From: Escherichia coli
Lineage (GTDB): Bacteria > Pseudomonadota > Gammaproteobacteria > Enterobacterales > Enterobacteriaceae
Direction: 5' to 3' (one strand)
DNA length: 64,000 nt
Assembly (NCBI RefSeq): GCF_051903065.1
Contig: NZ_CP178438.1
The translations under genes and the position numbers were made by a program. Positions 37 through 740 of the stretch are shown here, one piece after another; within the stretch, counting starts at the first letter, position 1, and the number at the start of each line of letters is the position of its first letter. Under the pieces are notes generated by a model that searched no databases, was not told the origin of the DNA, and saw only the letters and a program-made list of their open reading frames with translations.

Positions 37-396
37 TTATAAATGATTCAAACGCTCATTCAGTGTTTCAATAATATAGGTATTAACAGAGACTTGTTGC
101 TGCGCAGCCGCATTATTAAGGCGTTCACTCAGCGATTCTGGATAGCGTAACGTAAAGGTCTTAATCTTTTCTGTACGCGCATACGGCTCAATACCCGCAG
201 CTTTACAATCCTCAAGATACTCTCGCAGGGAAAGTTCCCCTTCTTTTTGCAGCCCCTGAATGCTGTCAGAGACAAAATCACAATAACCTGACAAGCCCAG
301 GAATTTGCCACGAAATGCATTCAGTTCTGGCACGTAAGTGATAACAGCAGGTTGCCCGGCAATCTCCATAGAGTTTGGCGTCTTCAGTTTGATCAT
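37..396 (-). CDS. HicB-like antitoxin; N-terminal HicB-type domain with C-terminal ribbon-helix-helix-like tail
   Basis: 119-aa ORF; C-terminal segment TFTLRYPESLSERLNNAAAQQQVSVNTYIIETLNERL resembles a RHH DNA-binding motif; start overlaps the stop of the upstream small ORF by 4 bp; family assigned from memory only. Confidence 0.45.
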   Translation of the reverse strand: MIKLKTPNSMEIAGQPAVITYVPELNAFRGKFLGLSGYCDFVSDSIQGLQKEGELSLREYLEDCKAAGIEPYARTEKIKTFTLRYPESLSERLNNAAAQQQVSVNTYIIETLNERLNHL

Positions 397-668
397 GGTT
401 TTACCCCTATACTTAGTAACCAGTCACGCACGCTTTCTACAGCGCCTTTATCGGTATCTGGCGACGGATGAGGCCGATGGAAACACGCAACGCTCATATT
501 TAGTATGAACTTACAACGCGAACCTCTTCCTTCCTTAATTTCTCCGCCTAATTCTTTAACCAGTGACTCTATATCAGACCACTTGATCCCTTGAGGAACA
601 GGAGTTTTAAATATTTGATCCAATGTATTTTTTTGTTTCTTCCGTAAAGCCTGTACCTTGGTTCTCAT
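393..668 (-). CDS. HicA-like toxin (putative mRNA interferase), first gene of a two-gene toxin-antitoxin module
   Basis: 91-aa ORF; C-terminal 60 aa resemble the HicA/YcfA pattern (GS.CKF...HRPHP...DKGAVESV...L..IG); AAGGA Shine-Dalgarno 6 nt before the ATG at 668; toxin-first order with 4-bp overlap is typical of hicAB. Confidence 0.45.
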   Translation of the reverse strand: MRTKVQALRKKQKNTLDQIFKTPVPQGIKWSDIESLVKELGGEIKEGRGSRCKFILNMSVACFHRPHPSPDTDKGAVESVRDWLLSIGVKP

Positions 669-677
669 GGCATGTCC

Positions 678-729
678 TTATGACTTCACTTTATGACATC
701 AATAGTATGACATCACAGTATGAAGTCAA
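678..729 (-). promoter_or_regulatory. Four direct repeats TATGAC(A/T)TCA upstream of the toxin gene; candidate promoter/operator
   Basis: ttatgacttcac, ttatgacatcaa, gtatgacatcac, gtatgaagtcaa at 12-15 bp spacing within 60 bp of the start codon. Confidence 0.3.
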
Positions 730-740
730 GTTTCCCTTCC

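Follow-up and report, generated by a model that had tools for sequence, protein, structure and literature searches.

The window analysed here is a stretch of 64,000 nucleotides of Escherichia coli DNA (contig NZ_CP178438.1, assembly GCF_051903065.1), in which two genes, hicA and hicB, sit in a 0.8-kb gap between nikR and yhhJ. An earlier reading made from the letters alone (the sequence-only reading) had described a 91-aa and a 119-aa open reading frame (ORF) with a 4-bp ATGA overlap, had taken them for a HicA/HicB-like toxin–antitoxin pair, and had pointed to four repeats in front of them as a plausible autoregulatory operator. Both ORFs are present and overlap as described (Table 1). hicA lies immediately upstream of hicB in one predicted operon, and the ATGA overlap, which is also found in 70 of 83 related hicAB loci, suggests that translation of the two genes is coupled.

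By profile, fold and structure searches, the pair is a HicA/HicB toxin–antitoxin cassette, and the identity first proposed for it is thereby upheld. The Pfam model HicA_toxin (PF07927) matches residues 30–80 of the 91-aa protein (E=5.4e-9, model positions 1–52 of 58), and hhalign matches the alignment of its clade to that of canonical HicA with a probability of 84% and E=7.7e-6. In the predicted structure an N-terminal two-helix extension, residues 1–28, precedes a core that resembles a dsRBD (a domain that binds double-stranded RNA), with an α-helix (30–39), three β-strands (43–46, 51–56 and 59–64) and a second α-helix (74–86); this is the α-β-β-β-α fold of the HicA family. The glycine two residues before the catalytic position, G49, is retained in 261 of 263 clade members, a set that includes representatives of 50%-identity clusters; its equivalent is Gly22 in the HicAs of Burkholderia pseudomallei and Neisseria gonorrhoeae.

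The 119-aa protein has both domains expected of a ribbon-helix-helix (RHH) type HicB. The Pfam model HicB (PF05534) matches residues 60–112 with E=3.5e-15, and the tail gives weak Pfam matches to the RHH families Arc, CopG and FitA. The predicted structure (pLDDT 89.5) shows an N-terminal domain of four strands and a long helix, residues 9–67, which is the partial RNase H-like HicB domain, and C-terminal helices at 87–99 and 104–118. The top ranks of a Foldseek search with this model are held by 6g26_A/B (probability 1.00), 4p7d, 4p78_A, 6u0i and 6hpb_B, and Arc matches the tail. A HicB family profile run against the Protein Data Bank (PDB) finds Arc and AmrZ (E ~6e-4), and in PHROGs the families 'toxin', 'HicB-like antitoxin' and Arc-like repressor are matched. 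The organisation is that of Gerdes class 4, hicAB with an RHH HicB (PMC10865869).

The best structural matches to the pair are Yersinia pestis HicA3–HicB3 (4P78, 4P7D) and B. pseudomallei HicAB (6G26), both of class 4, which share with it the toxin-first bicistronic operon and the dsRBD-like HicA, although the proteins are only 10–25% identical. The toxin described here differs from theirs in its length of 91 aa, with the 28-residue two-helix N-terminal extension, in an arginine where they have the catalytic histidine (H28 and H24, respectively), and in an extra near-invariant FHRPHP motif. The HicA–HicB pair of E. coli K-12 (yncN/ydcQ, 6HPB) is a different locus, its HicA being a 58-aa protein, and the cassette described here is missing from the K-12 lineage. 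K-12 HicA has His23, K-12 HicB carries a helix-turn-helix in place of an RHH domain, and their operon is driven by two promoters, with a CRP site (PMC11594946).

The cassette is of a known kind and is already labelled in RefSeq as 'type II toxin-antitoxin system HicA family toxin / HicB family antitoxin', in agreement with our assignment. No NCBIfam model matches either protein, and a single-sequence search of PDB sequences gave nothing useful, whereas profile and fold searches did match. The top match of a search of the representative library, P0149 (1981 aa), was rejected as a false positive; it is a 27-fold repeat of a unit of ~70 aa and reads as a translated DNA repeat array, not as a real protein. 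Some HicA homologues carry the inherited misnomer 'hexulose-6-phosphate synthase'. At residue 39, the end of the dsRBD α1-helix, HicA of the window has Glu (KELGG), a strain-specific substitution for the Ala (KALGG) of the other E. coli sequences and of most from enterobacteria.

Table 1. Positions of the hicAB genes and of predicted or candidate expression signals in the window
Feature	Position	Strand	Remarks
hicA-like toxin gene	393..668	minus	91-aa ORF (668 to 393)
hicB-like antitoxin gene	37..396	minus	119-aa ORF (396 to 37)
ATGA overlap, hicA stop / hicB start	393..396	minus	read from ORFs
Operator box 1 (candidate)	721..728	minus	sense TGACTTCA; overlaps -35 hexamer
Operator box 2 (candidate)	708..715	minus	sense TGATGTCA; in promoter spacer beside -10 hexamer
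Operator box 3 (candidate)	694..701	minus	sense TGATGTCA; directly downstream of -10, over predicted transcription start
Operator box 4 (candidate)	681..688	minus	sense TGAAGTCA, box 1 inverted; in 5' leader, close before ribosome-binding site
-35-like hexamer TTGACT	724..729	minus	sigma-70-like promoter prediction
-10-like hexamer TACTAT	702..707	minus	sigma-70-like promoter prediction
Predicted transcription start	about 694-697	minus	sigma-70-like promoter prediction
Shine-Dalgarno-like AAGGA	675..679	minus	6 nt before ATG at 668, read from sequence

Arginine at the position of the catalytic histidine

The sequence-only reading had noticed GSR where HicA usually has a catalytic His, and the alignments bear this out. 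GSR occupies residues 49–51, where canonical HicA has G-S-H; the clade profile aligns 'rGSR' with 'RGSH' of the solved HicA 9svk_A (profile against PDB, E=0.09), and the hhalign comparison with canonical HicA gives the same register, in which R51 stands opposite the catalytic His. In the HicA model R51 is the first residue of strand β2. Reviews and mutagenesis put the catalytic His of characterised HicAs at the start of β2 as well: H24 in B. pseudomallei and N. gonorrhoeae, H28 in Y. pestis, H36 in Streptococcus pneumoniae and H23 in E. coli HicA (PMC11594946, PMC12297915, PMC7180214).

The substitution is a property of the whole clade. Among 263 members compared, R51 is found in 255 and His at that position in a single one; S50 is kept in 257, W30 in 254, and H64 and H67 in 250 each, the last two within the near-invariant motif F63-H64-R65-P66-H67-P68. 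Clustered at 50% identity, the clade falls into 1,061 groups (E up to 1e-3), and the FHRPHPSP motif is present in at least 509 species genomes. Between genera dN is 0.09–0.21 and synonymous sites are saturated. By these measures the hicAB genes are under strong purifying selection, and GSR is a clade-defining feature, not a sign of decay. The suggestion that the toxin may be "divergent or inactive" thus stands as to divergence, with Arg51 at the His position, but GSR itself, near-invariant and under purifying selection, does not point to decay. Inactivation of hicA in E. coli comes from other lesions, an early stop and a frameshift, which are described below. Since the histidine is replaced, we regard the protein as a member of the HicA fold and sequence family that falls outside its His-dependent functional group.

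If the histidine is gone, what would take its place? The hhalign alignment sets H67 against the non-essential His/Tyr that follows 'VTVP' in canonical HicA, and puts H64 in place of the Thr of 'VTVP'. Strands 51–56 and 59–64 form a tight hairpin in the model, so residues 51 and 64 would be cross-strand neighbours. Because R51, H64 and H67 are conserved and the gene is under purifying selection, the toxin is probably active by way of a non-canonical site. It is tempting to go further and to propose that the GSR/FHRPHP HicAs are a mechanistically distinct toxin clade with a rebuilt active site, in which the catalytic His has shifted to His64 on the neighbouring strand with Arg51 in the old place; with its added N-terminal helical module, such a toxin may cleave or bind an RNA target other than that of canonical HicA, or need a partner such as the ribosome. 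We offer this wider proposal tentatively, thinking it somewhat more apt to be wrong than right. The clade to which it would apply is broad, with about a thousand 50%-identity clusters in Proteobacteria, Cyanobacteria and other phyla, and on plasmids and phages.

Another member of the toxin world provides a useful precedent. Within one toxin superfamily, the His/Glu acid–base pair of YoeB is replaced by Arg, Lys and Tyr in RelE, and mRNA cleavage is kept, which shows by analogy that Arg for His need not mean inactivity. RelE/YoeB is no relative of HicA: the fold is unrelated, and RelE cleavage is ribosome-dependent, of which there is no sign for this HicA clade.

The contrary position is that the protein is HicA-like but has no nuclease activity, and either belongs to a non-toxic regulatory module, with HicB as repressor and HicA as co-factor or RNA-binding partner, or inhibits by binding without cleavage. 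The arginine itself speaks for this, standing where all tested HicAs have an essential His (PMC11594946, PMC12297915), and predicted HicAs can be non-toxic when over-expressed, as was found for an unrelated, canonical-size HicA of Erwinia amylovora (PMC6521040). We nevertheless consider it quite unlikely. A whole polar set (G49, S50, R51, H64, H67, D73) is under strong purifying selection; the toxin invariably comes with a HicB whose toxin-binding N-terminal domain is retained; the clade travels on plasmids and temperate phages, like addiction and defence modules; and hicA-specific knock-outs beside an intact hicB are common. RelE, again, is a potent mRNA-cleaving toxin with Arg, Lys and Tyr where YoeB has Glu and His.

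We found no characterised HicA without the His in the literature. The Sinorhizobium meliloti HicA was rejected as a member of the clade, as its catalytic His is conserved, and so was that of E. amylovora, which belongs to a 59/136-aa pair and not to the 91-aa clade. A large HicA clade defined by a near-invariant Arg-for-His replacement thus appears to be undescribed. The literature treats HicA as a His-dependent RNase, with every mutational study resting on that residue, and here is a clade that lacks it while being common and under selection. It therefore allows toxicity of the HicA fold to be examined with respect to the catalytic residues, the need for cleavage and the target. The label 'HicA family toxin' is adequate for annotation, but it hides this difference.

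Promoter boxes and the HicB DNA-reading strand

The pattern TATGAMNTCA has exactly four matches in the whole window, both strands considered: 679–688, 692–701, 706–715 and 719–728. Their starts are 13, 14 and 13 bp apart and all lie within 61 bp of the ATG at 668. Shuffled sequences give an expectation of 1.15 matches for the entire window, an estimate that is post hoc, the pattern having been read off this very sequence; the independent test is conservation in other genera. The repeats had first been described as four direct copies of TATGAC(A/T)TCA. Three copies fit that description, but the fourth, TATGAAGTCA, departs from it, its 8-bp core being the reverse complement of the core of the first copy. 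The repeats overlie a predicted sigma-70-like promoter (TTGACT, a 16-nt spacer and TACTAT; 9 of 12 consensus positions).

The box and its layout, two pairs with 13 bp within each pair, recur upstream of the orthologues in Citrobacter, Serratia, Erwinia, Xenorhabdus, Photorhabdus, Pectobacterium, Prodigiosinella, Leminorella, Cedecea and Buttiauxella, while the sequence between the boxes and the genomic neighbourhood vary among these genera. In 18 loci, 1,980 bp of upstream sequence contain 54 boxes (27.3 per kb) and 104,787 bp of other sequence contain 31 (0.30 per kb), a 92-fold enrichment; 13 bp accounts for 19 of the 36 box intervals.

The boxes also change with the protein that would read them. 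In this clade the HicB ribbon strand is KTFTLRY, and in the rest of the family it is SGKFNVR-like. At least two TGAnnTC boxes are present upstream in 28 of 29 loci whose HicB has the TFTLR strand, none of which has paired RGTAYYA-type boxes 12–14 bp apart; with other strands the figures are 1 of 52 and 27 of 52, respectively. Such RGTAYYA pairs occur in none of 3,839 control windows. This switching of box sequence with the strand is what would be expected if the HicB ribbon reads the boxes. Their overlap with the predicted promoter, their conservation in several genera and their co-variation with the DNA-reading strand of HicB make the boxes, in our view, a well-supported candidate for a HicB autoregulatory operator. 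Phylogenetic footprinting and co-variation have, in this respect, strengthened what the sequence-only reading had put forward.

The arrangement is in keeping with what is known of RHH repressors. Arc, Mnt, AmrZ and the omega-type proteins read short repeated boxes by a two-stranded ribbon, with one dimer per box, and the omega repressor accepts direct or inverted heptads. The tail of the present HicB matches Arc and AmrZ by sequence and by fold; in contrast to these repressors, its DNA-binding domain is fused to a toxin-neutralising domain, and the 8-bp box with a 13-bp period is specific to this clade. The candidate operator also differs from those of Y. pestis and B. pseudomallei HicAB, which consist of two 15-bp inverted repeats, in having four 8-bp boxes, mostly direct, at 13–14 bp spacing. 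The operators of those systems likewise flank or overlap the promoter, one Y. pestis operator overlapping the -10 (PMC11594946).

Could the repeats be something other than a HicB operator? They might be promoter elements, sites for another regulator such as CRP or NikR, or a neutral local duplication. The -35 falls inside box 1 and the -10 is made up of the flanks of boxes 2 and 3, so that some of the conservation could reflect the promoter alone; the E. coli copies contain GTATGA (window 704–722), which is the half-site of the NikR operator, and nikR adjoins; and one repeat unit can be lost with the locus surviving. Against this, one would not expect promoter elements downstream of the -10, which is where boxes 3 and 4 are found, and the box sequence switches together with the HicB strand. 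Furthermore, the boxes travel with hicAB to unrelated sites, between murJ and argS in Serratia and in a prophage remnant in Xenorhabdus, which rules out a neighbour-specific regulator. The NikR operator arrangement, GTATGA-N16-TCATAC, does not occur in the repeats, its single two-mismatch match, at 503–530, being at chance level. As GTATGA has no inverted partner at NikR spacing and the orthologous boxes lack this flank, its occurrence near nikR is probably a coincidence. A CRP site, judged by eye, was likewise dismissed: TGTGA is present, with no matching right half-site. Taken together, we find it very improbable that the repeats serve some purpose other than binding HicB. They are also no known RNA element, for a search of window positions 1–1200 with Rfam (E up to 1) found no RNA family.

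In Xenorhabdus and Pectobacterium (L006 2461-2540, L012, L014, L015, L018-L020) the boxes read ATGACTTCA, which in the hicA frame encodes Met-Thr-Ser. This leads gene callers to carry the N-terminus of the toxin on into the operator and to produce models of 102–104 aa (e.g. P0039, P0055). Outside Enterobacterales, an 84-aa clade (L035-L087) has a pair of RGTAYYA boxes, spaced by 13 bp, in the 60 bp upstream of hicA. The second box doubles as a -10-like hexamer (TACCAT or TACTAT) and is only about 6–10 nt from the ATG, a distance that suggests transcripts with a very short leader or none in that clade.

Proposed autoregulation, disrupted alleles and spread of the locus

Natural alleles bear on both the toxin and the operator. 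In a three-box allele, represented by E. coli CFSAN029787 (L089 1893-2250, aligned to window 380-760), a 14-bp deletion removes exactly one repeat unit, holding box 2 or box 3. The second codon of its hicA is TAA (ATG TAA), and the RefSeq annotation gives it a product of 76 aa that starts at codon 16, a CTG. A 67-mer specific to this allele is matched at 99% or more in 766 complete genomes, ~37% of the carriers of the locus. In a frameshift allele (L090 1501-1668, aligned to window 480-560), a one-base shift inside the GSR codons, GGGGGTCGCGC to GGGGGGGCGC, leaves a product of 55 aa; it was found on 588 contigs and in 858 index blocks, a frequency given as contig counts only. Both alleles have the full 119-aa hicB, and the HicB WP_000593555.1 is identical in ECNB21-M121, O157:H7 and the three-box strain. 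Lesions in hicA beside an intact hicB are the asymmetry that would be expected if the toxin is costly, which makes them indirect evidence of such a cost.

We propose that the locus is a two-gene HicAB module with coupled translation, four-box autorepression and an RNA-targeting toxin with a relocated site. Transcription would start, most likely, from the sigma-70-type promoter inside the 72-bp spacer between yhhJ and hicA, and hicA and hicB would be translated in a coupled manner through the ATGA overlap. The N-terminal domain of HicB would bind and mask HicA, and RHH dimers of HicB would bind the four 8-bp boxes (TGAnnTCA, 13–14 bp apart). As these cover the -35, the spacer, the transcription start and the leader, the operon would repress itself. 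HicA, which keeps the dsRBD-like fold and the conserved glycine, would still be an RNA-targeting growth inhibitor, with a relocated active site formed by Arg51, His64 and possibly His67.

Several points weigh against this proposal. The His replaced by R51 is essential in every characterised HicA (PMC11594946, PMC7180214, PMC12297915), and loss of RNase activity is therefore a real possibility. The statistics that align R51 with that His are moderate (the E=0.09 and the hhalign probability of 84% given above), and we infer that R51 and H64 are neighbours from the secondary structure of a model. Operators of other RHH HicBs are inverted repeats (PMC11594946, PMC10865869), whereas the boxes here are mostly direct, and the association between box and strand in essence sets a single clade against all others and so does not amount to several independent events. 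The promoter is predicted, from only the nine-of-twelve consensus match, and there is no convincing terminator between yhhJ and hicA, so read-through from rbbA–yhhJ could occur. Truncated hicB variants also exist, at lower counts than those of hicA, and we found no published work on this hicAB locus in the literature. With these points set against the evidence above, we still consider the proposal as a whole likely, and the best explanation of the locus.

A conserved candidate operator of four boxes with 13-bp spacing, for which three-box and toxin-null alleles occur naturally, also appears to be undescribed. It would make a ready system for the study of how an RHH HicB reads repeated boxes, and it could show how toxin-first operons avoid an excess of toxin.

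As to the role of the module, as distinct from its anatomy, anti-phage defence by abortive infection may be considered in place of addiction, locus stabilisation or a stress response. Defence contexts are a frequent setting for HicA domains (PMC10865869), temperate phages and plasmids carry relatives, and the locus is strain-variable and sits at a hot spot, with an Rhs element in K-12 and an adjoining sugar-utilisation island in O157:H7. On the other hand, no PADLOC-DB 2.0 family matches either protein at E up to 0.01, the E. coli flanks (nikR and the yhhJ–rbbA transporter genes) hold no defence genes, and about a third of the carriers have a disrupted toxin. A defence role seems to us on the unlikely side, if with some claim to attention.

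The locus, at 80% or more of its length, is present in 2070 of 5426 complete E. coli genomes (~38%), O157:H7 among them, and is chromosomal in all. The yhhJ stop codon, at 741–743, is on the same strand as hicAB, so the description of the pair as "upstream of yhhJ" is right in window coordinates, where it lies to the left, but transcriptionally the pair is downstream of that stop. On the other side nikR lies ~120 bp beyond hicB; NikR is itself an RHH protein. In a 100%-identical genome (ECNB21-M121) hicAB sits between nikR and yhhJ, and O157:H7 has hicAB with the sugar-utilisation island on the hicB side. In DH5a, a K-12 strain, the order between nikR and yhhJ is rhsB-yhhH-pseudogene-yhhI (ISEc1 transposase), and no trace of window bases 1–742 was found. 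The earlier statement that K-12 has rhsB/yhhH/yhhI here, and that this is strain-variable content, was thus correct. Citrobacter, too, carries hicAB at this nikR/yhhJ junction, which probably makes hicAB the older state of the site and the arrangement of K-12 the replacement.

Elsewhere the cassette is found at other sites, in Serratia between murJ and argS and in Xenorhabdus in a prophage or IS remnant, and more distant relatives are on 231 plasmids and in 51 phage genomes. In Serratia silvae (L025 2998-3633) the hicA stop is lost and hicA and hicB are fused into one ORF of 210 aa, with the usual boxes upstream, a form that resembles Gerdes class 11, the monocistronic fused HicA–HicB.
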